Virus record (IMG/VR): IMGVR_UViG_3300042261_001186
Span: 66,398-130,397 of that record
Length of the DNA stretch: 64,000 nt
Direction: 5' to 3' (one strand)
Source: a virus
Made by a program: the position numbers and the translations under genes. The notes below the pieces were generated by a model that saw nothing but the letters and a program-made list of their open reading frames with translations, searched no databases and had not been told where the DNA came from. Every line of letters begins with the position of its first letter. The first letter of the stretch is position 1. This document shows, piece after piece, positions 6,823 to 45,225 of this stretch.

Positions 6823-7503
6823 TTATATATTATAGTTTAACAACCACCTTTTATTTGATGAAATCAAATCATTTCTTGAATATAAAGAATATACTGAAGG
6901 TTTTCCATTATTAACGCCTGATATATTTATTGTACCATCAGTTGTCATAAATGTATCTGCAATAATGAAAACATTATCTATTTCTGAATTAGATAAATAA
7001 TTATTATATAAATTGATATTTTCCAAATAAATAAGTTTTTCTATATTTATAGTTGTTAATAAACTATTTGGAATTGCAAATTCTTTTAAATATTTTAAAT
7101 TACTTATTGATGCTGACATAACACCACCAGTTGTACCAGATGGTGAAACATAAAAACGTTCTATTTTATTTAAATCACCAAATATCCTAATATCAAAAAT
7201 ATCAGTAGTTGAGTATATGTGTTGATATATAAAAGGTAATGAAATAGTATGTTGTTCTGTTGTACCATCCCCAAAATCAAAAGTGAGACTAGTTGGAAAA
7301 GTAGGTGCAGATAATTCAATCAACAATGTTGAATTACTATAATTAGAATTGAATTGTATATAAAAAGAATCTATTGGTATACCATTATCATTGTCATATT
7401 CTGAAGTTACATTATCATTTAATATAGGTATAGGTATCTTTGTTAATTTATCTATCCCTATATCTAATAACTCTATTGGTTTTAATGTTAATTTAGAATC
7501 CAT
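6823..7503 (-). CDS. PKD-like plus LRR-like protein
   Basis: FDFGDGT (PKD) and LxxLxxINLYNNYL (LRR). Confidence 0.55.
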   Translation of the reverse strand: MDSKLTLKPIELLDIGIDKLTKIPIPILNDNVTSEYDNDNGIPIDSFYIQFNSNYSNSTLLIELSAPTFPTSLTFDFGDGTTEQHTISLPFIYQHIYSTTDIFDIRIFGDLNKIERFYVSPSGTTGGVMSASISNLKYLKEFAIPNSLLTTINIEKLIYLENINLYNNYLSNSEIDNVFIIADTFMTTDGTINISGVNNGKPSVYSLYSRNDLISSNKRWLLNYNI

Positions 7504-7506
7504 GTT

Positions 7507-7845
7507 TTATTTTTTTCTTTTAGATATTTTTGAAATTTTATTATTCAATTCCTCTTTTGTACAATTTTCTAATCCAATTGGTCTTTCTGTTTCATCACAA
7601 TACATTTGAATATAATCATTATTGAATTCAACTATACTAATATTTAATTCATTTCCTTCAGAATCATATGTTCTGAAATCAAAATTTCTTTGAATATTAT
7701 TAAAATCAATATGTTTAATTTCTATATCATTCATACCTTTTAATAAAGTTAAATAATCTTCAATTCCATGAAAATTCCAATTTTCTTCCCCTAAAGGATC
7801 AACATCTGAGTAATCTGTTTCAAACAATTTAAATTTAGTTATCAT
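7507..7845 (-). CDS. leader + DP-tag small protein
   Basis: MITKFKLFE then DVDPLGEENW. Confidence 0.75.
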   Translation of the reverse strand: MITKFKLFETDYSDVDPLGEENWNFHGIEDYLTLLKGMNDIEIKHIDFNNIQRNFDFRTYDSEGNELNISIVEFNNDYIQMYCDETERPIGLENCTKEELNNKISKISKRKK

Positions 7846-7860
7846 TTATGAGAATTTTAT

Positions 7861-7871
7861 TTTAATATATA
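7861..7871 (+). promoter_or_regulatory. putative phage late promoter TTTAATATATA
   Basis: Same 11-mer sits upstream of genes at 16376(-), 24139, 29479(-), 31327(-), 36758, 46097, 48806, 56834, 57786, 58552, 60190. Confidence 0.55.
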
Positions 7872-7894
7872 TATAAAAATAAAAAAGACAAACT

Positions 7895-8506
7895 ATGAAA
7901 CTTTTTGAAGAATTTATACAAGCTGATTATGAGATGGACAGAATTGTCAAACAACTTATTGAAAGAATAAATTATTGGTTTAAAGATGGTTCTTTCTCTT
8001 TAAGTTCATCACCTGTTGATATAACTAAAAGTTCTACACCAAATGCTTCAAAAAGAGCAATCATAACTAATTTTGCAGATGCAGAATTCTATTACCAACT
8101 AATCATAAAAATATACATAGAAGATTTGGAAAATTGTGATGTTATACTGAAAAAATATGATCCAAATAAAATAGATGAACCAAATGGTGGCGAACCAATA
8201 TCACAAATAGATTTGACAAATGATAAACAAGTAAAAATTAATGAAGTTAAAGAAGATTTTATTATAAAGAAAATATCTGAATTGGATGATAAAAAAGAAA
8301 ATCCAGATGAAAATAAAATAGAAACACCTAAAGAAAAAGAAGAAAAACCTGCACAAGGACAACAACCACCAGCTCAAGGTGGAATGCCTCCAGGTTCTAT
8401 GCCACCTCCTGCTCCTGGTGCACAAATGGGTGGAATGCCACCTGCTCAAGGTATGGCTCCTCCAGCACAAATGGGCGGAGCACCTGGTATGCAGACCCAA
8501 ATGTAA
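7895..8506 (+). CDS. hypothetical protein with Pro/Gln/Gly/Met-rich tail
   Basis: Leader MKLFEEFI; C-terminal PPAQ(M)GG repeats. Confidence 0.75.
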   Translation: MKLFEEFIQADYEMDRIVKQLIERINYWFKDGSFSLSSSPVDITKSSTPNASKRAIITNFADAEFYYQLIIKIYIEDLENCDVILKKYDPNKIDEPNGGEPISQIDLTNDKQVKINEVKEDFIIKKISELDDKKENPDENKIETPKEKEEKPAQGQQPPAQGGMPPGSMPPPAPGAQMGGMPPAQGMAPPAQMGGAPGMQTQM

Positions 8507-8531
8507 TTTATATATAAGATAAAAAACATAA

Positions 8532-9017
8532 ATGGAAATTGTAACATCAAGTAATATGATAAGAAGATTTAGAGGAATAAAAGAATTCCAAATGAATCTT
8601 GGATTATCCAAAACAACTGAAATAAATAAAGAAGGTACAAAAAGTGGTCAACAGATAATAATAAAGATTAAAGATCCATTTGTTAAAAGATATCTTATGT
8701 TAACTGGAAATTATTTAGTAAAAAGTGGAAATATAGGTTCTTTGAATTTCTATATGGATAATTCTGTTGGTTATAATAATTTCCTTATATATGATAAGGA
8801 TAAAGAATATAAATTTGATTTTAAGGATACTGGAGATATTAGAAGTTATTTATCAGATATATTAGATAAAATACTTAATAATGAATTAACACCAACCAAT
8901 TTGGAAATGAATATGGAAGAAGAAATAGAATTCAGATTGGATAAGAATTTACCACAAAGAGAATTTTTGGAAAAACAAAAGGAAATGCAAGAGGAAATGG
9001 CAAGAATGAAAATTTAA
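8532..9017 (+). CDS. hypothetical protein
   Basis: 161 aa ORF in operon. Confidence 0.7.
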   Translation: MEIVTSSNMIRRFRGIKEFQMNLGLSKTTEINKEGTKSGQQIIIKIKDPFVKRYLMLTGNYLVKSGNIGSLNFYMDNSVGYNNFLIYDKDKEYKFDFKDTGDIRSYLSDILDKILNNELTPTNLEMNMEEEIEFRLDKNLPQREFLEKQKEMQEEMARMKI

Positions 9018-9034
9018 AAAATAAACAAAAAATT

Positions 9035-9742
9035 ATGGAAAAAATATTATTAGAAGATATAGTTCAAGTAGATTTCCCTGAAAATCAATATTATAGGGAA
9101 GAAACAAATAAAAAACAAATTGTACTACATCATACCGTTTCTGGTGGAAAAGCTGATGGAACAATAAGTTGGTGGAATCAAGATTCTCAAAAAATAGCAA
9201 CTCAATTTATAGTTGATGCTAGTGGTGTTGTATACCAATTATATTCATCTAAATTTTGGGCACATCATTTAGGTATTAAAGCAGATTTTATAAAAAAATA
9301 TGGTTTTACAGATTATGGTAACAGAAATACTCTTTTAAATAAAGAATCCATAGGTATAGAAATTTGCAGATGGGGTGGACTTTTAAAAGATTCTAATGGT
9401 TATCACCCAACATATTGGGATGCTGCTTTGAAAAAAGAAGTTTGTCAAACCAAAATAACAATACCTAATGAAAACGTTCAAGTTTTTGATAAACCTTTTA
9501 GAGGATATTATGCATTTGAAAAATATACACCAGAACAAATTGAATCTGTTGGAAAATTAGTTACTTACTTAGGTGAAAAATGGGGTATTCCACTTGATTA
9601 CAATTCTGATATGTGGGATGTTAATAAAAATTCTTTAGGTAGTGTACCTGGTATTTGGACTCATGTAAGTTATAGAGCTGATAAATCAGATTTAATGCCA
9701 CAACCTGAAATGATTGAAATGTTACAGAATTTAACGGTTTAA
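9035..9742 (+). CDS. N-acetylmuramoyl-L-alanine amidase (Amidase_2), probable endolysin
   Basis: IVLHHT, WAHHLG, SIGIE, THVSYRADKSD zinc-amidase motifs. Confidence 0.85.
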   Translation: MEKILLEDIVQVDFPENQYYREETNKKQIVLHHTVSGGKADGTISWWNQDSQKIATQFIVDASGVVYQLYSSKFWAHHLGIKADFIKKYGFTDYGNRNTLLNKESIGIEICRWGGLLKDSNGYHPTYWDAALKKEVCQTKITIPNENVQVFDKPFRGYYAFEKYTPEQIESVGKLVTYLGEKWGIPLDYNSDMWDVNKNSLGSVPGIWTHVSYRADKSDLMPQPEMIEMLQNLTV

Positions 9743-17791: not shown

Positions 17792-18134
17792 AAAATTTAT
17801 AGAACAAGCTAAGAACATTAGAAGAGAATACATTAAAAGTGTTAATGACATATTGTCTTGTGAGGATAAAATAAATTATTATAAAACTAAATTATCTGAA
17901 GTTCAACTTAATATGCAAAGTACTAGTAAAGATGATATACGTATTAAAATGATGGATATAGAGAAAAATATAAAAGTTATTGAAAATCTAATGAATCCTC
18001 ATACAAATAAAGTAAAATCTCTTGAAAAAGAAGCTGATATTTTGTTTGAAAATATAATGGAAAGACATCCAAATTATACTAAGGAAGATATTCAAAATGA
18101 ACTTATTCCACACCTAAAAGAAATCAAATTTTAA
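17784..18134 (+). CDS. hypothetical coiled-coil protein
   Basis: 116 aa, overlapping operon arrangement. Confidence 0.7.
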   Translation: MDKKFIEQAKNIRREYIKSVNDILSCEDKINYYKTKLSEVQLNMQSTSKDDIRIKMMDIEKNIKVIENLMNPHTNKVKSLEKEADILFENIMERHPNYTKEDIQNELIPHLKEIKF

Positions 18135-18458
18135 ATGGAAGAATTAGACTTAACCTCTTATGATGATTTGATGAAATCATATCACCTTGTAAGAAAAATA
18201 TATGAAATTCATAATAAATTCAAAGATTTGGAAGATGATCCAATAGAATATAAATCTATTAATGTTAATTTAGATTTACTTGATATAATAATGGAAGTAA
18301 ATTTTGTATTTTCACCAAAAATTGGTATATTGAGTAAGATTGATAAAGTAACAAAAGTGGGTGTATTACTTAATATTGAGGTTTTCTTGGAACCAGGTTT
18401 AGAGAATAAAGTAGTTTTTAATGGAAGAGAAAACTATGAATTAATAGTTAAAATATAA
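18135..18458 (+). CDS. hypothetical protein
   Basis: 107 aa abutting previous ORF. Confidence 0.65.
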   Translation: MEELDLTSYDDLMKSYHLVRKIYEIHNKFKDLEDDPIEYKSINVNLDLLDIIMEVNFVFSPKIGILSKIDKVTKVGVLLNIEVFLEPGLENKVVFNGRENYELIVKI

Positions 18459-18481
18459 TTTTTTATATCAATAATTATGTT

Positions 18482-18489
18482 TATATTTG
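18482..18489 (+). promoter_or_regulatory. Bacteroidota-type -7 promoter element TAnnTTTG
   Basis: TATATTTG; similar intergenic elements at 20312, 21283, 31404, 32298, 37614, 39696, 46060(-), 60172, 61153; TTTG 19-20 bp upstream at 20312, 31404, 60172. Confidence 0.6.
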
Positions 18490-18512
18490 TATAATAAATA
18501 AAATTTTTCAAA

Positions 18513-18851
18513 ATGGCAACATTGTTCAGACCAGTTGGGTTAAAAGAACTTCTTCTGATAAAAAATTCTGGCTGGACAAAATTTCCACCTAGATTACCAG
18601 AACAGCCAATATTTTATCCTGTCTTAAATGAAGAATATGCTACACAAATAACTAAAGATTGGAATGTTAAATCAACTGGTTTTGGATTTGTCACAAAATT
18701 CAATATTGATGATGAATATTTTAATACTTTTGAAATACACAATGTTGGGGCAAAAATTCATAATGAACTTTGGGTTCCAGCTAGACAACTTAATGAATTT
18801 AATAAACATATAATAGGAAAAATAGAAATCACTAAATCTTTTAAAAAATGA
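18513..18851 (+). CDS. conserved small protein of the family often annotated ADP-ribosylation/Crystallin J1 (possible ART-like fold)
   Basis: LFRPVG.KEL.LI..SGW.KFPPRLPEQPIFYPVLNEEYA..I..DWN. Confidence 0.6.
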   Translation: MATLFRPVGLKELLLIKNSGWTKFPPRLPEQPIFYPVLNEEYATQITKDWNVKSTGFGFVTKFNIDDEYFNTFEIHNVGAKIHNELWVPARQLNEFNKHIIGKIEITKSFKK

Positions 18852-19390
18852 AATTCTTCGATAGATTTATTTTAGCACCTTATATAATGAAGGCTACATC
18901 CCTTATAGGTGTTCATCGTAGATGTGGTGGAAATCAATTCAGACACCAATTTGCAACACTTGGAATTTTATTGGACTATAAATATTTTGATGATAGTGTC
19001 TTACTCAAGGCTTCACTCATTCACGATTTACTTGAAGATTGGGGTGATGAACAAATTGAAGCAATAAGAAACCTTGATGAAGATGGATACCAAGTTATTG
19101 AATTGGTTAAAGAAGTCACCAAGAGTAAAGATGAACCTAAAGAAGTGTATCTTAAAAGAATACTTGATAGTGGTTCAGATAGAGCTAAAATCCTTAAATG
19201 TGCAGACAGAATAAGTAATTTAACAGACTTACATTTAGATACACACACATCAGGAAAAATAGCATTATATTTAGATAATACTGAAAAATTTATTATTCCA
19301 ATGGCATTAGCTGTATCTAATATAGATTTTGTGAAAGAACTTGCAGATTTAATTATAGAAAGAAGATTATTAATTGAAACCAAAAAATAA
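18848..19390 (+). CDS. HD-domain hydrolase, Mesh1/SpoT-like
   Basis: LIHDLLED, KCADRISN. Confidence 0.8.
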   Translation: MKFFDRFILAPYIMKATSLIGVHRRCGGNQFRHQFATLGILLDYKYFDDSVLLKASLIHDLLEDWGDEQIEAIRNLDEDGYQVIELVKEVTKSKDEPKEVYLKRILDSGSDRAKILKCADRISNLTDLHLDTHTSGKIALYLDNTEKFIIPMALAVSNIDFVKELADLIIERRLLIETKK

Positions 19391-19396
19391 ATAGAT

Positions 19397-19615
19397 ATGA
19401 AAAACAAATATTTTGAAAATTGGACACCTAATGTTATAAATAGAAATTATAATGAAATGTATGTATCATATTTGAAAAGTAAAATAAATAATTATCCTGA
19501 AATTAAATTAAAATATGATAATATTGATTTAGATTCAATGAATAAAGATGATATTAGTATTGAAGCCAAGAAAATAGATGAAATGATAACTGAAATTAAA
19601 AATAAAAACAAATGA
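19397..19615 (+). CDS. hypothetical protein
   Basis: 72 aa in operon. Confidence 0.55.
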   Translation: MKNKYFENWTPNVINRNYNEMYVSYLKSKINNYPEIKLKYDNIDLDSMNKDDISIEAKKIDEMITEIKNKNK

Positions 19616-20061
19616 TTGAAAACACAATTAACACAGACATCAAGAATGCAATGATGGAAAAAAATGCAATGAGACTAGAAGCTCTCAGAACCATCAAAAC
19701 AGCAATTCAATTAGAAAAAGCTAAAGAAGGAACTGAATTGACTGATGAACAAGTTATTAAAATTATACAAAAACTAGTCAGTCAAAGAACAGAATCAGCA
19801 GTTCAATATGCAAGTGCTGACAGAGTAGACTTAGTTGAACATGAATTGGATTTGGTTACGGTTTTCAAACTTTACTTACCAGAACAAATGTCTGAAGCTG
19901 AAATCAATGCTAAAGTAAAGGAAATCATTACTAATGTTGGAGCAACATCTGTAAGGGATATGGGTAAAGTTATGTCTATTGTAAATAAAGATTTGGCTGG
20001 AAAAGTAGATGCTAAAGCAGTAGGACAATTAGTAAAACAATTATTAACCTTAAAAACTTAA
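19612..20061 (+). CDS. yqeY: GatB/YqeY domain protein
   Basis: DIKNAM, LEALRTIK, QRTESAVQY, YLPEQMSE, DMGKVM. Confidence 0.9.
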   Translation: MIENTINTDIKNAMMEKNAMRLEALRTIKTAIQLEKAKEGTELTDEQVIKIIQKLVSQRTESAVQYASADRVDLVEHELDLVTVFKLYLPEQMSEAEINAKVKEIITNVGATSVRDMGKVMSIVNKDLAGKVDAKAVGQLVKQLLTLKT

Positions 20062-20065
20062 AATT

Positions 20066-20293
20066 ATGATTTTATTTATTGCAGAAGTAATATTGACCAT
20101 TTTTGCATGGAGAAATGGTTGGAAATGGTTGGCTTTGATACCAATGGGTGTTATTTTCTTAATTGGTATGATTATTGGTTCTAGTGTGGCTATGTCAGGT
20201 GGGTCAATGGACAATTTAGGAGGTCTCTTTATGTTCGATCTTATGGCTATTGTGGTTTTGATCATTATGGTATGTAAGAAAAGAAAAATTTGA
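20066..20293 (+). CDS. small membrane protein
   Basis: Three hydrophobic segments. Confidence 0.65.
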   Translation: MILFIAEVILTIFAWRNGWKWLALIPMGVIFLIGMIIGSSVAMSGGSMDNLGGLFMFDLMAIVVLIIMVCKKRKI

Positions 20294-20332
20294 TAATTCA
20301 AAAAATTGTTGTATCTTTGTTAAAATTATAAA

Positions 20333-20488
20333 ATGAAAAATATAAAACTTTTATTGGCTGGATTAGTGATAGGATTTGTGGTTTCTGAAGCTGTCGTTCA
20401 ATATAAAAAAATGAAAAATGAAAAAGAAATTGAAGACAAGGAAATCAGTGAATTACTCAAGTTGAAAAGAAAATACCCTAAAGTTTAA
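20333..20488 (+). CDS. small single-TM protein (51 aa)
   Basis: MKNIKLLLAGLVIGFVVSEAVVQYKK...; just downstream of TATCTTTG promoter. Confidence 0.55.
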   Translation: MKNIKLLLAGLVIGFVVSEAVVQYKKMKNEKEIEDKEISELLKLKRKYPKV

Positions 20489-20534
20489 ACTTTTTGGAAA
20501 TATGTGACTATTAAGAGATAATATATAGTAATAT

Positions 20535-20552
20535 ATTGTTCTTTGAAAATAT
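20535..20552 (+). promoter_or_regulatory. boxA-like element (18-bp repeat, copy 1)
   Basis: ATTGTTCTTTGAAAATAT identical at 20718-20735; variant TGTTCTTAAAAATAT at 31422; each precedes an ncRNA. Confidence 0.55.
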
Positions 20553-20555
20553 TTA

Positions 20556-33183: not shown

Positions 33184-33425
33184 GTATTTACAAACCAAAA
33201 GATATGTATTATGGATTGGATTCTGTTAAAATAAAAAAAGTAGTTTATTTTTTAAGAGATCAACATGATTGGACCAATAGGAAATTCAAGACTTATGAAG
33301 ATTGTTTGGAATTCAAAACACATTTCAGTAGTGATGTGTGGGATGAATTTGTTAAATATTTAGAGAAATATCAAAACATAACTATTATAGAGAAAATCAA
33401 AGAGGAGGATATAGAATGGCTTTGA
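33174..33425 (+). CDS. IEW-tagged protein
   Basis: Ends IKEEDIEWL. Confidence 0.75.
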   Translation: MDVGIYKPKDMYYGLDSVKIKKVVYFLRDQHDWTNRKFKTYEDCLEFKTHFSSDVWDEFVKYLEKYQNITIIEKIKEEDIEWL

Positions 33426-33694
33426 TATTGGAAAACATAGCGATTATTTCGAAATATTTGAAAAGTGCCAAAGTGAATTACACTGGTAACAACATGTATT
33501 CAATTATCATTCGCGATTTGTATGTCAATGTTTTGATAGATGAACACTTATATGATTTGGAATTAATGACGATGGTCAGGTTTGCGTTCAAAGAAAAATA
33601 TGGAGTTGATATTTTGAAGACAACACTTGAACATAATTTGAAACGTTTGAATGATAAAGAAACTTATAAAGAGGAGGATATAGAGTGGTTATGA
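33416..33694 (+). CDS. IEW-tagged protein
   Basis: Ends YKEEDIEWL. Confidence 0.75.
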   Translation: MALILENIAIISKYLKSAKVNYTGNNMYSIIIRDLYVNVLIDEHLYDLELMTMVRFAFKEKYGVDILKTTLEHNLKRLNDKETYKEEDIEWL

Positions 33695-41417: not shown

Positions 41418-42059
41418 ATGAAAGAGAAAATTAAAATATGTGTAATATCTGATACTCATGGTGAACATGGTGAACTTGTTATTCCACCATGTGATATCAT
41501 TGTACATTGTGGTGATAGTACCTCACTTGGTAAAGAACATAGTGTTAGGGAATTTCTTAAATGGTTTACTGAACTTGAACAATGTAAAAACAAAATTTTC
41601 ATTGCAGGTAATCATGATTTCTTTTTTGAAAGGAAGGGTGAATATGCTAGGGGATTGGTGCCAGAAAACATCATTTATCTTGAAGATAAAATGGTTGAAG
41701 TTGAAGGTATAAAATTTTATGGAACTCCTGTTACTCCAGTATTCCATAATTGGGCTTTTAATAAAACTGAAGAACAATTAAAAGATTATTGGAGGGATGT
41801 TCCTGAAGGAATTGATGTTTTGGTCACTCATGGACCACCTTTAGGGATATTGGATGTATCCCCTTGGACAAAGAAGAATTGTGGTTCTACAACCTTGAAA
41901 GAGGAAATCTTTGGAAGAATCAAACCAAAGTATCATTGTTTTGGACATATCCATGATTGTTATGGTATGGAAGAAGTAGATGGTGTAACATTTATTAATG
42001 CATCAAGTTTGAATGAACAATATGAAGTAGCAAATGAACCTATACTAATAGAAATATAA
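41418..42059 (+). CDS. calcineurin-like metallophosphoesterase
   Basis: SDTHG, HCGD, AGNHD, THGPP, FGHIH. Confidence 0.9.
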   Translation: MKEKIKICVISDTHGEHGELVIPPCDIIVHCGDSTSLGKEHSVREFLKWFTELEQCKNKIFIAGNHDFFFERKGEYARGLVPENIIYLEDKMVEVEGIKFYGTPVTPVFHNWAFNKTEEQLKDYWRDVPEGIDVLVTHGPPLGILDVSPWTKKNCGSTTLKEEIFGRIKPKYHCFGHIHDCYGMEEVDGVTFINASSLNEQYEVANEPILIEI

Positions 42060-42060
42060 A

Positions 42061-42237
42061 ATGGAACGAAAAAATTTAGAAAAATTGACAAAGAGGGAAC
42101 TGATCGATTTGATGATGGAACACTATGATTGTCTGAAAAGAGTTGCTAAACGACATAAAGATGATTATGATAAAGGAAATTCTGATATGAATGATTGGAA
42201 TTTTACTTATTATGCTGGAAAAAATTTCTGTGAATGA
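42061..42237 (+). CDS. small hypothetical protein (58 aa)
   Basis: MERKNLEKLTKRELIDLM..., abuts previous stop. Confidence 0.5.
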   Translation: MERKNLEKLTKRELIDLMMEHYDCLKRVAKRHKDDYDKGNSDMNDWNFTYYAGKNFCE

Positions 42238-42317
42238 ACACATCCTGGTCGGAAAGAAATATCCCGATGCAAATAGGTTTAGGAATACTTGTGAAGTGAA
42301 AACTTTAAATAGACAAC

Positions 42318-42575
42318 ATGAAAAGAGTTAAAGAAATAGTCCTTGATTTCAACACCAAAATGCACTTGTTTTTCCCACAAGTAACTAAAACATATATTGG
42401 TGGTAGGAAATTATTGGTGGAAAATTTATATTTCTCTAATGATGATGATGAATGGGTATCTATAAACAAAAAAGGTGAATTATTTACTTTAGAAGAAGCT
42501 AAGGAATTTCTAAATAATATAGATAAATATTTAGGGAGTAAAAAAGACATAACAATAATATATCATGAATTGTAA
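42318..42575 (+). CDS. hypothetical protein
   Basis: 85 aa. Confidence 0.6.
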   Translation: MKRVKEIVLDFNTKMHLFFPQVTKTYIGGRKLLVENLYFSNDDDEWVSINKKGELFTLEEAKEFLNNIDKYLGSKKDITIIYHEL

Positions 42576-42798
42576 AGTAACTAGGGAACAAGTAGAGGAT
42601 TTAAAGAATTTTCATATGGGTATAGATGTAGTTCAAGCTCTTGAAGCACAATTGATTAAGGAGTTAACTGAAAATATTTCAGAAAATATAAGAGTTAGGA
42701 TTCAAACCATAAGAAGTTATGATTATCCTGAGTTAAAGAAATACAAACAAGTGTTTAATGAAGTAGATCCTTATGGAGAAGAAATGTGGGAGGAATAA
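42565..42798 (+). CDS. DP-tagged protein
   Basis: Ends KQVFNEVDPYGEEMWEE. Confidence 0.7.
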   Translation: MNCKVTREQVEDLKNFHMGIDVVQALEAQLIKELTENISENIRVRIQTIRSYDYPELKKYKQVFNEVDPYGEEMWEE

Positions 42799-42800
42799 TT

Positions 42801-43037
42801 ATGAAAAATGTTATGATAGTGGAAAACGTAAATCCGACCGGCGAAATCGTATTGAAAGGGACGTTCGTGACTTTCTCAATTAAGAATTCCGGTAGGTTCT
42901 ATGATGTTGAGATGTATAAATCCGCGTTGGCCGAGATATTGGCCAGAAAAGCCGAAAACGAGGAAAAGAAAAAACAGGCTTTCTGCCAGGTGTTCAGCGA
43001 TGTGGACCCATACGGGGAAGAAGAATGGGAGGCTTGA
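42801..43037 (+). CDS. DP-tagged protein (first gene of CpG-rich island)
   Basis: Ends QVFSDVDPYGEEEWEA. Confidence 0.7.
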   Translation: MKNVMIVENVNPTGEIVLKGTFVTFSIKNSGRFYDVEMYKSALAEILARKAENEEKKKQAFCQVFSDVDPYGEEEWEA

Positions 43038-43038
43038 C

Positions 43039-43524
43039 ATGGCATTGGTTAAAATGACGAACGCGACGCAGGAATTCAAGGACAACCTGACGGCGCAAGC
43101 GAGGTACCTCGAAATAGAAAACACTTACTTAGGCAGCGTGAATAGGGATTGCTGGGTATGGACTGGCAGGTGCTTCGCGCAGACTCTGAAAGGCAAAAAC
43201 TTGAATTTGGATGGACACCGCGATTTCGGATGGATGAATTTCAAGGGATTCTCAAGAATAGACGGGTGCCCGGTTTTCTTAGTGCCTGAGAATTTCGCTG
43301 CAGGGGATAGATATGCTAGGATGATAGAAGTGTTCGGATTGATGACTTTGAACGCGGACGGAACGGCGAAGCATTATCAAAAAAACGATTTGCGGTTCCA
43401 ATTGATAGAGCCTGTTTTTGAGGTGAGATATGCGCCCGGATACAAGCCTCTCCCTATGAAAAAATACAAGCAAGTCTTCAGCGAAGTCGATCCTTTCGGC
43501 GAAGAGAACTGGGAGGAGGATTGA
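43039..43524 (+). CDS. DP-tagged protein
   Basis: Ends KQVFSEVDPFGEENWEED. Confidence 0.75.
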   Translation: MALVKMTNATQEFKDNLTAQARYLEIENTYLGSVNRDCWVWTGRCFAQTLKGKNLNLDGHRDFGWMNFKGFSRIDGCPVFLVPENFAAGDRYARMIEVFGLMTLNADGTAKHYQKNDLRFQLIEPVFEVRYAPGYKPLPMKKYKQVFSEVDPFGEENWEED

Positions 43525-43747
43525 TAGACGACAGGGAATACGTGAAAAGGCTGAAGTTTTTCAGGGAGCTGAAAATGACAAAGACAAATGGGCATCTTTC
43601 AGCGACGCAGAAAGGGGCCTGCTTTTGGAAAAAATGAGGGAAGTCTCCGATTATTCCGCGAATTTCAGGAAAAACAGAAAATTTAAAAAACTGCAAAAAT
43701 ATAAAGAAATAGACCCTTACGGGGAAGAAAACTGGGAGGACGATTGA
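43521..43747 (+). pseudogene. DP-tagged gene with frameshift near 43575
   Basis: MIDDREYVKRLKFFRELK joins DKDKWASF...EIDPYGEENWEDD if one A is added to the A run. Confidence 0.6.
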
Positions 43748-43748
43748 T

Positions 43749-43982
43749 ATGGGCGGGAGCTTAAGGATTACGACTAAATTCAACAAATATGCGATCGCGG
43801 AATCAAAAGGCATAGACATGCTGAAAATAATAGAAGACGATTTGATAAGGCAGATGAAAAACTTAGGTTATCACAAATACGAAGTGATTAGGCACGATGA
43901 TTCTATCGTCGTTCAATCCTGCACCGGAACAAGGATTTTTTCAGAAGTCGATCCTTTGGGCGAAGAAATATGGGAGGACTGA
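43749..43982 (+). CDS. DP-tagged protein
   Basis: Ends RIFSEVDPLGEEIWED. Confidence 0.7.
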   Translation: MGGSLRITTKFNKYAIAESKGIDMLKIIEDDLIRQMKNLGYHKYEVIRHDDSIVVQSCTGTRIFSEVDPLGEEIWED

Positions 43983-44437
43983 TGGCCAAATACGAATTCG
44001 AGACCACCGACGCGAGAAGGGAAATCATGAAAAAAATAAAAGCCAAGGACACGAAAACGGAAGTGGCTTTCAGGAAAGAATTGTGGAGGCTCGGAATAAG
44101 GGGGTACAGGAAAAACAGCAAGAAAGTCTTCGGAAAGCCGGATCTGTCTTTTTCGAAGAAAAAAATAGCGGTTTTCATAGACGGGGAATTCTGGCACGGA
44201 TTGGAATTTGAAAAGACGGCGAAGATAAAATCGAACGCCTCTTATTGGTTGCCCAAAATAGAAAGGAACATCCAACGGGACAAAGAGGTTAACGAAAGAT
44301 TGAAAGAAGAAGGTTGGACGGTCTTGAGGTTTCCGGAAAAGAAGAAAACCAAAAAAGACATTATCTCGGCGGCGAACAAAGTGATCGAGGCGCTGGGACA
44401 AAAAATAAAAGACGCAGATGGGATTGTTAAATGTTGA
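43982..44437 (+). CDS. vsr: very-short-patch repair endonuclease
   Basis: M..I..KDT..E, GKPD, FIDGEFWHG, YW.PKIERN..RD, GWTVLRF. Confidence 0.92.
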   Translation: MAKYEFETTDARREIMKKIKAKDTKTEVAFRKELWRLGIRGYRKNSKKVFGKPDLSFSKKKIAVFIDGEFWHGLEFEKTAKIKSNASYWLPKIERNIQRDKEVNERLKEEGWTVLRFPEKKKTKKDIISAANKVIEALGQKIKDADGIVKC

Positions 44438-44471
44438 AAAAAAAGAGGAAGATTAATCTTCCTCTTTTTTT
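44437..44471. terminator. bidirectional intrinsic terminator
   Basis: A-run GAGGAAGATT/AATCTTCCTC T-run. Confidence 0.85.
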
Positions 44472-44597
44472 ATTCTATCCAATACATTTTGTTTTTCTTC
44501 ATTAGTATATTTATTCCATTTGGATATTTCTTCTTTTGTTCGTTTACAACCTATGCATACACCTTCTTCTAAAATGCATATATGTTGACAGGGACTT

Positions 44598-44837
44598 TTA
44601 ACTTCCATTTTTATTATCTGGTATTTCTATTATTTTTGGTTTATCTGGTATTTCTGGATTATCTGGCATTAATGGAATTTCTTCTACATCAGGTTTTTGT
44701 GGTAATATTTCTACACTTGAAAATGTAAAAAATTTTCTAGTTAATTTAGCAGGTATAGGTTTTCCTTCTTCATAAAGAGTGTTTATTTCCTTGTGTTTCT
44801 TAATAAGTTTCTTTAATGCTTTTATATTTATTTTCAT
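44598..44837 (-). CDS. hypothetical protein with EIPD repeats
   Basis: PDNPEIPDKP..EIPDNK. Confidence 0.55.
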   Translation of the reverse strand: MKINIKALKKLIKKHKEINTLYEEGKPIPAKLTRKFFTFSSVEILPQKPDVEEIPLMPDNPEIPDKPKIIEIPDNKNGS

Positions 44838-44847
44838 TTAGTTTTTA

Positions 44848-45225
44848 TTATTTTTTAGACAATTTAGCCTTATATCCAAAATCAAATGGGGAACCTTCTT
44901 GCCATTCTTGTGTTTGTCCATTATAAACTCTGGGTATTTCATTCATCATCAATGAATCTTTAAATAAATCACAATCTACACCAACATTAGAATTCAAATC
45001 TAATGTATGTTCTTCATCACATAATTCAAGATTCATTTTTAGAACTTTGATTTCTTCTTCCAATATCCTCTGACTACTGGCAAATTTTTCTAAAATTGCA
45101 GGAGATTGTTGAAAAGATATAGTTTTTTCAACTAACCCATTCAATATTTTTATTTCTCTCTCTTTCTTAGCGATTTCTTCAGAAATACTAAGTGATACTT
45201 CTTCGTAATTAATTCGGTCTTTCAT
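44848..45225 (-). CDS. hypothetical protein
   Basis: 125 aa overlapping DHFR end. Confidence 0.65.
   Translation of the reverse strand: MKDRINYEEVSLSISEEIAKKEREIKILNGLVEKTISFQQSPAILEKFASSQRILEEEIKVLKMNLELCDEEHTLDLNSNVGVDCDLFKDSLMMNEIPRVYNGQTQEWQEGSPFDFGYKAKLSKK

Follow-up and report, generated by a model that had tools for sequence, protein, structure and literature searches.

A block at positions 42827-44437 of the 64,000-nt stretch of freshwater phage DNA analyzed here (the window) differs sharply in composition from the rest of the genome. It is probably a five-gene cassette that was imported recently from an unsampled relative of the same tag-bearing, huge-phage-related lineage. The block contains 96 CpG dinucleotides and has a GC content of 44.1% and an observed/expected CpG ratio (CpG o/e) of 1.30, compared to 27.8% and 0.27 for the whole window. 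Outside the block, the window has 235 CpG in 62,389 bases (3.8 per kb), and the rest of the window predicts only 6.1 CpG for the block (Poisson P ~4e-78). An earlier, sequence-only reading had put the content at about 95 in 1.6 kb against a few per kb elsewhere, which agrees with our count, and had also noted that GC is raised apart from CpG. Indeed, with every CG deleted, GC is still 0.366 for the block versus 0.268. Elsewhere in the window, CpG forms a strong patch only at 20569-21228, which is a tmRNA gene. Thus, the block has the hallmarks of a horizontally acquired island, namely abrupt edges together with a base composition and codon usage that deviate from those of the genome.

The block consists of five translationally coupled genes, namely four small genes with a DPxGEExW tag followed by vsr, and then a hairpin terminator. 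Gene 1 (42801..43037, + strand; 78 aa, GC3 0.56, 15 CpG) ends in a C-terminal tag of the DPYGEEEWE type, and its product matches no Pfam family over the cut-off. C-terminal tags are also present in gene 2 (43039..43524, +; 161 aa, GC3 0.60, 31 CpG) and gene 4 (43749..43982, +; 77 aa, GC3 0.49, 13 CpG). The placement of four genes plus vsr in the island, as originally described, holds with the caveat that the third gene consists of two overlapping frames. The first (43521..43637, +; 38 aa) stops just past a run of six A, and the second (43625..43747, +; 40 aa) carries the tag. A frameshift of -1 within the A run might fuse them into a product of ~75 aa; the contigs of three runs contain no insertion or deletion in these frames.

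The DPxGEExW motif occurs 36 times in the genome, and the subtype of the block tags (C-terminal, W followed by E) is that of the native array just upstream. In the nearest member of the left flank, a native AT-rich gene for a tagged protein of 77 aa (42565..42798, +), the tag codons TGGGAGGA directly precede the start of gene 1, whose ribosome-binding site lies within this tag. The last 21 residues of gene 2 are 81% identical to the end of this neighbor. The match in tag and lead-in had been recognized before, and the tag codons quoted at that time are correct. Otherwise, the block proteins resemble the products of other genes in the genome over the tag only, with the exception of a weak similarity between gene 4 and the neighbor at 42565 (33% identity across 61 residues). 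The tag genes of the block belong to the phage's own tag-bearing, huge-phage-related lineage.

Both edges of the block are steps. The first CpG of the block is located at 42827 and the preceding one at 42265, with no CpG across the 561 bases to the left. The last CpG lies at 44413 and the next at 44541, with one CpG across 127 bases to the right. From first to last CpG, the CpG-rich and GC3-rich run occupies 42827..44413. In windows of 100 bases, GC changes in a step-like manner from 0.30 to 0.39-0.53 inside the block and then to 0.24-0.29, and there is no gradient of CpG or GC on either side of vsr. The edges coincide with gene borders, that is, with the start of gene 1 and with the stop of vsr and its hairpin, as is usual for module exchange. 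The hairpin (44438..44471) comprises 15 pairs flanked by an A run upstream and a T run downstream, has a folding energy of -18.1 kcal/mol (z -4.84), and was matched in stability by none of 200 shuffles. GC steps down at this element, as expected from the proposal that the island ends at the vsr terminator. Judged by its structure, the hairpin is likely a two-way terminator common to vsr and the convergent gene on the right flank, a native gene for a DUF1289 protein of 51 aa (44453..44608, -; PF06945 7.5e-17). A promoter and terminator scan missed the hairpin after vsr and returned 64 promoter-like sites versus 65 in shuffles. The conserved tag on the left and the DUF1289 gene on the right might have served as recombination anchors.

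Among the Logan runs, only three from two studies contain the stretch, and the AT-rich flanks are present in all of them; next to none of it is present in the run X4. The left edge is spanned with 0-1 differences by contigs of the runs X1 (41598-44467) and X3 (42545-44458) and of X2 (42630-42955), which belongs to another study, and the word depth is the same inside and outside the block. One C-to-T (G-to-A) variant at a CpG is present in these data, at 44236. The left junction is physically continuous. At the right edge, bridging contigs came from the probable source sample only and extend across it by only 21-30 bases. Read mapping across both edges had been proposed as a check of the assembly; spanning contigs were found in three runs for the left edge and in one sample for the right. 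Short contig "joints" with sides of 21-29 letters were considered as alternative forms of the locus and rejected; many are located at tag-coding stretches, and we read them as other tag genes. The record derives from a short-read metagenome assembly, and the right junction lies in a palindromic hairpin, where contigs break; both circumstances, together with the bridging in a single sample, would suit a chimera in which the DNA of another organism was joined into the phage contig. The left junction, recovered in two studies at equal depth, the lineage tag on four block genes, the ribosome-binding site of gene 1 inside the tag of a native neighbor, and the need for two exact joints at gene borders make such an artifact extremely improbable.

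We compared the block with native genes on the basis of codon contexts, four-fold sites, and the tags repeated inside the genome. The GC contents at the three codon positions are 0.43/0.32/0.56 in the block and 0.39/0.32/0.16 in native genes. The GC3 of native genes averages 0.183 (sd 0.057, maximum 0.38, n = 174), and that of the block genes ranges from 0.49 to 0.60. Third-position bases are A.41, T.43, G.09, and C.07 in native genes and A.28, T.16, G.32, and C.24 in the block. The frequency of third-position C before A/C/G/T is 0.68/0.48/0.75/0.40 in the block versus 0.22/0.21/0.04/0.11 in native genes. This C is equally common before A (38/56) and before G (57/76). The block is not native sequence that was spared from CpG decay, as the third-position shift is general and occurs in every context. 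Purines occupy 95 of 167 four-fold sites in the block, compared to 73.7 expected from native genes (Gly, p = 2e-4; Leu, p = 3e-3). Since this share is non-native, transitions, including repair of T:G to C:G, are insufficient on their own to make the block. Across the conserved C-terminal stretch of gene 2 and the neighbor, we counted by eye ~7 synonymous differences, ~3 of which are transversions.

These results do not support two explanations that had been put forward from the sequence. The first was that Vsr preferentially protects its own neighborhood in cis. It is at odds with the absence of a gradient and with a shift that affects third positions in general rather than CpG. The second was a mismatch-driven homing, in which Vsr resolves T:G mismatches between the CG-rich flanks and a rival allele in its own favor. 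The excess of TG/CA-to-CG changes that it predicts was not seen in the counts before A and G, and the four-fold purine share goes beyond what transitions provide.

The last gene of the block, vsr (43982..44437, +; GC3 0.57, 28 CpG), encodes a predicted T:G mismatch endonuclease of the very-short-patch-repair type with 151 aa, and its start overlaps the stop of gene 4. The product matches the PF03852 profile over residues 8-77 (1.7e-24; 85.9 bits, cut-off 27), which is the sole match in the genome, and it matches the E. coli Vsr structures 1cw0, 1vsr, and 1odg at low identity (E = 1e-9). It has 34 invariant columns in common with 11 relatives. P53-D54 and F70-W71-H72 are invariant in all 12 aligned sequences and align to the same motifs of 1cw0; based on the E. 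coli Vsr structure, we take the former to contain the catalytic Asp and the latter to be the DNA-intercalating/catalytic motif. At the Cys/His positions that we take as the zinc-binding set of E. coli Vsr, the aligned residues are E, G/L, and others, and the ligands are missing in 12/12 sequences of the DGEFWHG subfamily. The missing zinc set thus appears, from the alignment, to be a mark of the subfamily rather than a defect of this copy. The amino acid make-up is uninformative on the origin of vsr, because its GC at codon positions 1 and 2 (0.36) is inside the range of its homologues (0.32-0.51).

Only 39 of 50,697 GenBank phage records contain vsr. The gene is absent from the records of five of five tag-bearing relatives, most of which are fragments, and from five of five records that are CpG-poor or carry a methyltransferase; as the latter are fragments (8-52% complete), their lack of vsr carries little weight. 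Absence in relatives and rarity in phages fit a gain of the gene. The relatives of this Vsr reach 43-60% identity at best and are scattered over Bacteroidota, Clostridia, Neisseria, and archaea, which is a sign of frequent transfer. Such patchiness would also be expected if Vsr were, or resembled, a free-standing homing-type nuclease that nicks or cuts a vsr-free rival during co-infection, with repair then copying vsr together with the upstream genes. This would be a special mechanism of the same import, and the co-conversion would explain why lineage genes traveled with a vsr that closes the foreign block. The foreign tract, however, is confined to one side of vsr, whereas in T4 homing both sides of the break are usually co-converted. 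Moreover, the protein has no extra DNA-binding domain and does not stand out from the rest of its Vsr subfamily, and the synonymous divergence of the block from native genes is too large for a heteroduplex inside the block. We therefore regard a selfish cassette as unlikely.

Relatives of the block genes are few. A word-based search of 5.8 billion proteins for gene 2 returned only the gene 2 product itself. Four full-length relatives with 29-37% identity and a GC3 of 0.15-0.19 are present in tag-bearing IMG/VR contigs, and among GenBank phages only LR756501 and LR756503 have one. All ten relatives have a GC3 of 0.13-0.25. The family of gene 2 is small, and all of its known members come from tag-bearing phages with AT-rich genomes. 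A codon-neutral tag pattern was found in at least 118 IMG/VR stretches; among those listed, 116 have a GC of 0.22-0.34, and the two at 0.41 contain a single tag each. A pattern of GC-rich tag codons, which three of the block's own four tags match, retrieved 17 IMG/VR stretches, all AT-rich, and 84 metagenome stretches, 16 of them with a GC of at least 0.386. We examined these 16 and five further metagenome loci (L074, L111, L229, L242, and L253). The 21 loci comprised 12 long ORFs with an internal enolase-type motif, five ORFs of 16-49 aa, three with a C-terminal tag, and one with an internal tag. Three of the long ORFs were tested, and all three proved to be enolases. Among the matches listed, the pattern searches of 2.9 million viral and 241 million metagenome records revealed no GC-rich member of the tag lineage.

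A donor of the block was not found in Logan runs, IMG/VR, JGI metagenomes, or GenBank phages, nor did the collections searched contain a syntenic vsr-free relative or an empty site. The flanking phosphoesterase has no IMG/VR relative above 52% identity among 49 loci. The LR756501 locus has only the DUF1289 gene in common with the phage (82% DNA identity across 138 bases). The nearest relative found, G006, shows ~72% DNA identity across 6 kb; the overlap is confined to positions 53.8-59.9 kb of the genome, outside the block locus. In G006, CpG-rich patches are confined to RNA genes (a tRNA cluster and a GOLLD RNA), and 31 of 31 ORFs have a GC3 of 0.09-0.23. Protein-coding DNA rich in CpG thus departs from the pattern and calls for a source from outside. 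At the level of titles, a literature search revealed no description of a phage vsr block rich in CpG, which is weak evidence that none has been published.

The evidence favors the proposal of an import from a relative without CpG loss, which had earlier been called plausible; the near-identical donor named at that time as a test was not found in the collections searched. Several observations speak against this import. No donor was found and every sampled lineage member is AT-rich, with a GC3 of 0.13-0.25 for the gene 2 relatives. GC1 and GC2 are near native while GC3 is far higher, a disequilibrium unexpected from an old, settled GC-rich donor. In addition, the tag subtype is that of the adjacent native array, which fits an origin in place as well. 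The narrow bridging of the right edge in a single sample and the lack of a syntenic vsr-free relative in the collections also count against import.

Native genes might instead have been driven GC- and CpG-rich where they are, through biased mismatch repair linked to Vsr or a hotspot of GC-biased conversion. The lack of a GC-rich lineage member among the matches listed in the viral and metagenome pattern searches, the shared tag subtype, and the movement of GC3 alone, as in GC-biased gene conversion, are all consistent with this. Furthermore, V.NgoAXIII is a Vsr on record as accepting T:G in any context (PMC6116569), and Neisseria proteins are among the relatives of the Vsr studied here. The edges, however, are steps at gene borders without decay with distance on either side, and a diffusible enzyme has no known way of acting on its own operon alone. 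The rest of the genome is still at a CpG o/e of 0.19, the shift includes transversions, as seen in the four-fold purine share, and CpG is not favored over CpA at the codon 3-1 junction (0.75 vs. 0.68). An origin in place is unlikely, and we see only a slim chance for this particular route.

Alternatively, the synonymous sites may have been selected to differ from the genome, be it to prevent recombination with paralogous tag genes, to evade a sequence-directed host defense, or to form a signal patch of methylated CpG. A native-like amino acid make-up combined with wholesale synonymous change, and the many repeated tag-coding stretches that could misalign, would suit such a recoding. On the other hand, vsr has no paralogue in the genome and is shifted as much as the tag genes, and we know of no precedent for a phage cassette recoded for synonymous unlikeness; we consider it very improbable. 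Altogether, an enrichment of GC and CpG in place or in very close kin, whether by Vsr-tied biased repair or conversion or by selected recoding, is unlikely, and import of the cassette remains our preferred reading.

The CpG-poor state of the resident genome has a candidate cause. A gene for an M.MpeI-like CpG methyltransferase (22997..24097, -; PF00145, 180 bits) is located 20 kb from vsr and is native in composition (GC3 0.14, 2 CpG). Its best solved match, over the full length, is M.MpeI (4dkj; 7e-63). The CG-reading residues of M.MpeI include Gln141, Phe302, Ser304, Glu305, Gly322, Ala323, Ser325, and Arg326 (PMC10899764), and all eight of these named residues are identical in the aligned phage protein. 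By sequence, the resident enzyme is of the CpG type and M.MpeI-like, in support of the earlier assumption of CpG methylation by the phage. Depletion extends to all 16 NCGN contexts (o/e 0.12-0.38), and the CpG o/e is 0.23 for the 130-kb record and 0.19 for the rest of the genome. A methyltransferase with all of the named CG-reading residues would explain the CpG loss, and we infer that it was the cause genome-wide. Its two nearest IMG/VR relatives (47% identity) are encoded on contigs with a CpG o/e of 0.12 and 0.14. Tag-bearing relatives are generally not CpG-poor, with an o/e of 0.60-1.27 in 118 of 118 stretches among the matches listed. TGA serves as a stop in 34 of 178 called genes, which indicates a host with the standard code. 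The vsr gene is not next to a cognate C5 methyltransferase gene; the sole PF00145 gene is the one 20 kb away on the other strand. None of 16 loci of related phage methyltransferases has vsr within 10 kb, and in these loci and the five records mentioned above we found no second phage with both a CpG methyltransferase and vsr.

In the import that we favor, four tag genes and vsr would have been swapped in fairly recently from a phage of the DPxGEExW-tag lineage with GC-rich synonymous sites and without CpG depletion. The resident genome would have carried its methyltransferase for long, and deamination of 5-methylcytosine, with T:G mismatches fixed as TpG or CpA, would have removed about three quarters of its CpG. 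The cassette may still be CpG-rich because its residence has been too short for decay. Vsr would now supply the missing repair by nicking at the T of T:G mismatches derived from 5-methylcytosine, so that C:G is restored. It would act anywhere in the genome, not just beside its own gene, and slow further CpG loss. The direction and the recency of the transfer are presumed.

The locus would thereby be a natural experiment on what cytosine methylation costs a virus, with the states before and after side by side. The resident genome displays the apparent effect of a CpG methyltransferase without repair, with CpG left only in structured RNA genes, and the cassette displays the undecayed state along with the repair enzyme that it brought. 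A single genome allows one to ask how fast methylated CpG decays in a phage and whether a phage Vsr halts this decay. A further question is whether cassettes are exchanged among huge-phage-related genomes at the stretches that encode the tag. The mechanism, gene import plus a known type of repair, would be ordinary; it would be surprising only if the change had occurred in place. In that case, or in the case of recoding, the block would reflect a local, enzyme-linked drive on composition in a virus.

The closest known arrangement is the module of Burkholderia phage KL3, which consists of the EcoRII-C endonuclease, Vsr, and the EcoRII cytosine methylase (PMC3091744). There, too, one phage encodes a C5 cytosine methyltransferase and a Vsr, the latter being proposed to repair T:G mismatches that result from the phage's own methylation (PMC3091744). 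In KL3, the three genes lie side by side and include one for a restriction enzyme, and methylation is directed at CCWGG (PMC3091744). In the phage described here, by contrast, the methyltransferase is of the CpG type and encoded 20 kb from vsr, no restriction gene was seen in the block, and methyltransferase and vsr differ in composition and history. With the Dcm-Vsr system of E. coli, the phage shares the protein family and, presumably, the logic of nicking the T at T:G mismatches left by deamination of 5-methylcytosine. VSP repair skews oligonucleotide frequencies genome-wide. The phage Vsr, however, has low identity to the E. coli enzyme and does not conserve the presumed zinc-ligand positions, and vsr does not overlap the methyltransferase gene.

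Regarding the methyltransferase, Malacoplasma penetrans shows an under-representation of CpG (Wojciechowski et al. 2013, as cited in PMC11282364). The phage enzyme is similar to M.MpeI/M.SssI over the full length, keeps the named CG-reading residues, and occurs in a genome that is CpG-poor in every NCGN context. In contrast to the enzymes of Mollicutes, it comes from a phage whose host uses the standard code, and its CpG specificity is predicted from sequence. Tailed phages are mosaics with modules or "morons," which are compositionally deviant, self-contained blocks with their own terminator between native genes. The cassette resembles them as a deviant gene block with its own terminator and with edges at gene borders. 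It differs in that the cargo includes tag genes of the recipient lineage, nearly all of the deviation is at synonymous sites, and a donor lineage of this composition is missing from the sampled phages. Finally, the contrast between a sharply bounded, CpG-rich patch and a genome that methylates CpG and has little of it recalls the CpG islands of vertebrates, which are maintained by their lack of methylation in the germ line. In the phage, however, all synonymous sites differ and not CpG alone, and nothing suggests an unmethylated state.

The sequence-only reading had proposed a CpG island ending at the vsr gene in a CpG-poor genome, and the dinucleotide counts clearly bore this out. The stretch 42827–44437, hereafter the block, contains 96 CpG compared with 6.1 predicted from the 3.8 CpG per kb of the remaining window, at a GC content of 44.1% and a CpG observed/expected ratio (o/e) of 1.30. 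The first CpG, at 42827, follows a 561-base gap, the last lies at 44413, and GC content in 100-base windows steps up at ~42800 and down at ~44420. The block comprises five units on the plus strand: a 78-aa gene, a 161-aa gene (gene 2, 43039–43524), a unit spread over two overlapping frames (43521–43637 and 43625–43747), a 77-aa gene, and vsr (PF03852, 85.9 bits). Stops overlap or abut the next starts, and each start is preceded by a purine tract within the DPxGEExW-tag codons of the preceding gene. The last tag codons (TGG GAG GA...) form GGAGG-type ribosome-binding sites (42790–42803, 43028–43041, 43512–43523, 43735–43751, and 43970–43984) a few bases upstream of the following start. Through these sites the tag has a second role in coupling translation from one gene to the next, and its codons supply a conserved DNA stretch at every joint. 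A 15-pair hairpin (44438–44471), with an A run 5' and a T run 3', closes the block. In the third unit, the frames overlap at a six-A run (43629–43634) that immediately precedes the first frame's TGA, and a −1 shift there would give a tagged protein of ~75 aa, similar in length to neighbouring products. In this unit (43521–43747), no insertion or deletion was seen among the contigs from three sequencing runs. It is either a true site of frameshifting, a disrupted gene, or a pair of mini-genes.

The stretch was present in these three runs only (X1, X3, and X2, the last from a different study), with AT-rich flanks in each. Contigs of X1, X3, and the independent X2 cross the left edge with 0–1 differences. 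At the right edge, the X1 and X3 contigs stop 30 and 21 bases beyond the vsr stop, within the hairpin, and another X1 contig begins at 44442; no bridging piece was found among those listed for X2. Position 44236, a CpG at a synonymous site of vsr, is C in the window and T in all three runs, a single-site change of the type expected from 5mC deamination. Over 6.5 kb, one further difference was seen, at 45027; it is confined to X2 and lies outside any CpG.

The whole record (130,397 bases, the window being its final 64 kb) has 28.6% GC and a CpG o/e of 0.23, with TpG (1.18) and CpA (1.26) in excess. The standard genetic code applies, because TGA is an ordinary stop in 34 of 178 called genes. CpG depletion is uniform over all 16 NCGN words (o/e 0.12–0.38). 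A C5 methyltransferase gene of native composition (22997–24097, minus strand; GC3 0.14, 2 CpG) has as its best solved relative 4dkj (7e-63, full-length), the M.MpeI–DNA complex (PMC10899764). All M.MpeI residues named there as reading the CG step (Gln141, Phe302, Ser304, Glu305, Gly322-Ala323, Ser325, and Arg326) align to identical residues in the phage enzyme. The closest IMG/VR relatives of this enzyme, two at 47% identity, lie in contigs with CpG o/e values of 0.12 and 0.14, and the contigs of farther relatives (27–40%) range from 0.12 to 1.0. Neither the tag motif nor vsr was found on the phage fragments L259, L260, and L267, with methyltransferase identities of 47%, 47%, and 31% and a CpG o/e (0.12–0.14) lower than that of this record. 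We infer that methylation caused the CpG loss in this phage. A second CpG patch of the window (20569–21228) is mostly accounted for by a phage-encoded tmRNA gene (20736–21135; ARAGORN tag peptide GKNQIL; Rfam RF00023, 69.9 bits).

Two Vsr-based origins had been considered for the block: repair that preferentially protects the neighbourhood of vsr in cis, and homing, in which T:G mismatches with a rival allele are resolved in favour of the CG-rich copy. Codon positions argue against both. GC1/GC2/GC3 is 0.43/0.32/0.56 in the block versus 0.39/0.32/0.16 in 174 native genes; native GC3 averages 0.183 (sd 0.057, maximum 0.38), and the block genes reach 0.49–0.59. The C share of third-position pyrimidines before A, C, G, and T is 0.68, 0.48, 0.75, and 0.40 in the block and 0.22, 0.21, 0.04, and 0.11 in native genes, and the G share of third-position purines in the block (0.29–0.85 by second base) is not highest after C. 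As the third-position GC rise is thus general, CpG in the block is neutral, with neither avoidance nor specific creation of the dinucleotide. At third positions, T is down by 0.27, whereas C is up by only 0.17, and purines occupy 95 of 167 four-fold sites versus 73.7 expected (Gly, p = 2e-4; Leu, p = 3e-3). Transversions have therefore contributed, which T:G-to-C:G repair cannot yield. No composition gradient was found left or right of the block. Even in the tags, G or C fills the third position of 20/36 codons in the block's four, compared with 33/288 in 32 native ones. The next highest GC3 values, 0.38 and 0.36, belong to two small genes (33416–33694, and record positions 65030–65265 just left of the window) with 6–7 CpG each, which may be older, partly decayed imports.

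The block genes belong to the phage's own lineage. We counted 36 copies of the tag motif across the genome, and over its C-terminal 21 residues gene 2 matches the AT-rich native neighbour (42565–42798) at 81% identity. For gene 2, four tag-bearing contigs encode full-length relatives (29–37% identity), and the only GenBank phage matches are LR756501/LR756503 (735,411 bases). Five tag-bearing records were examined, four fragments of 16.7–163 kb (rated 9–23% complete) and one of 243 kb rated 100%. Because long fragments rate so low (21–23% for two of 152–163 kb), these records are probably huge phages; the 130-kb linear record, itself rated 100% complete by CheckV, may be a piece of a far larger phage. 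Right of the block, a DUF1289 gene (44453–44608, minus strand) shares 82% DNA identity over 138 bases with LR756501/LR756503, unusually high conservation for such genomes, with nothing else common to both loci.

The third proposal, import from a relative without CpG loss, is the reading we favour, with fair confidence, on the foreign GC3 and the step-like edges; its donor was not found in the sequencing runs, IMG/VR, or the metagenome stretches searched. The block's proteins are on record on a second contig as well. A codon-neutral DNA pattern of the tag matched at least 118 IMG/VR stretches; all the matches listed had a CpG o/e of 0.60–1.27, and among them 116 had a GC content of 0.22–0.34 and two, with a single tag, 0.41. 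A GC-codon version, satisfied by three of the block's own four tags, matched 17 IMG/VR stretches, AT-rich without exception, and 84 metagenome stretches. We inspected 21 loci, namely all 16 metagenome stretches with GC ≥0.386 plus L074, L111, L229, L242, and L253. Each held one tag: 12 were long ORFs in which an enolase-type motif lies internally, five were ORFs of 16–49 aa, three had a C-terminal tag, and one an internal tag. Pfam was run on three of these 12 and identified all three as enolases. The phage tag DP[FY]GEExWE is almost identical to the conserved internal enolase motif SIEDP[FY]GEExW, noted in the metagenome and genome contigs L182, L194, L195, L204, L214, L231, L248, L250, L256, L229, and L242, a likeness that may be coincidence or mimicry. 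All ten relatives of gene 2 (four full-length, six partial) have a GC3 of 0.13–0.25. Import thus needs an unsampled lineage member of unusual composition, its main weakness, and for this reason we still grant an origin in place a slim chance. That GC1 and GC2 stay close to native values suggests a recent GC shift in the donor itself. What remains as a loose end is the lack of a donor together with a shift confined to synonymous sites.

The nearest relative found, an IMG/VR record of 33,072 bases (L369 + L370; 8% complete), shows ~72% DNA identity to positions 53.8–59.9 kb of the 130-kb record. Its CpG o/e is 0.36, GC3 is 0.09–0.23 in 31/31 called ORFs, and its CpG-rich patches (7500–9100 and 18000–22000) are a tRNA cluster, in a record with 13 tRNA genes, and a region holding a GOLLD RNA (20212–20657; RF02032, 164 bits) in a 4-kb stretch without ORFs ≥80 aa. 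CpG in this kinship is thus retained only where RNA structure is selected. A CpG-rich coding block stands out against this pattern, and a recent arrival accounts for it best.

The vsr product is an ordinary member of the DGEFWHG subfamily, and the P-D and F-W-H motifs are among the 34 invariant columns it shares with 11 relatives; relatives at 43–60% identity occur in Bacteroidota, Clostridia, Neisseria, and archaea. Vsr was present in 39 of 50,697 GenBank phage records; among ten records, mostly fragments, that were either related or CpG-poor, no copy was found. Both kinds involved, the mosaic phage module and the pairing of a phage methyltransferase with Vsr, are already known: phage KL3 is on record with a methylase and Vsr (PMC3091744), V.NgoAXIII as a context-independent Vsr (PMC6116569), and in Malacoplasma penetrans CpG is reported as under-represented alongside a CpG methyltransferase (PMC11282364, citing Wojciechowski 2013).
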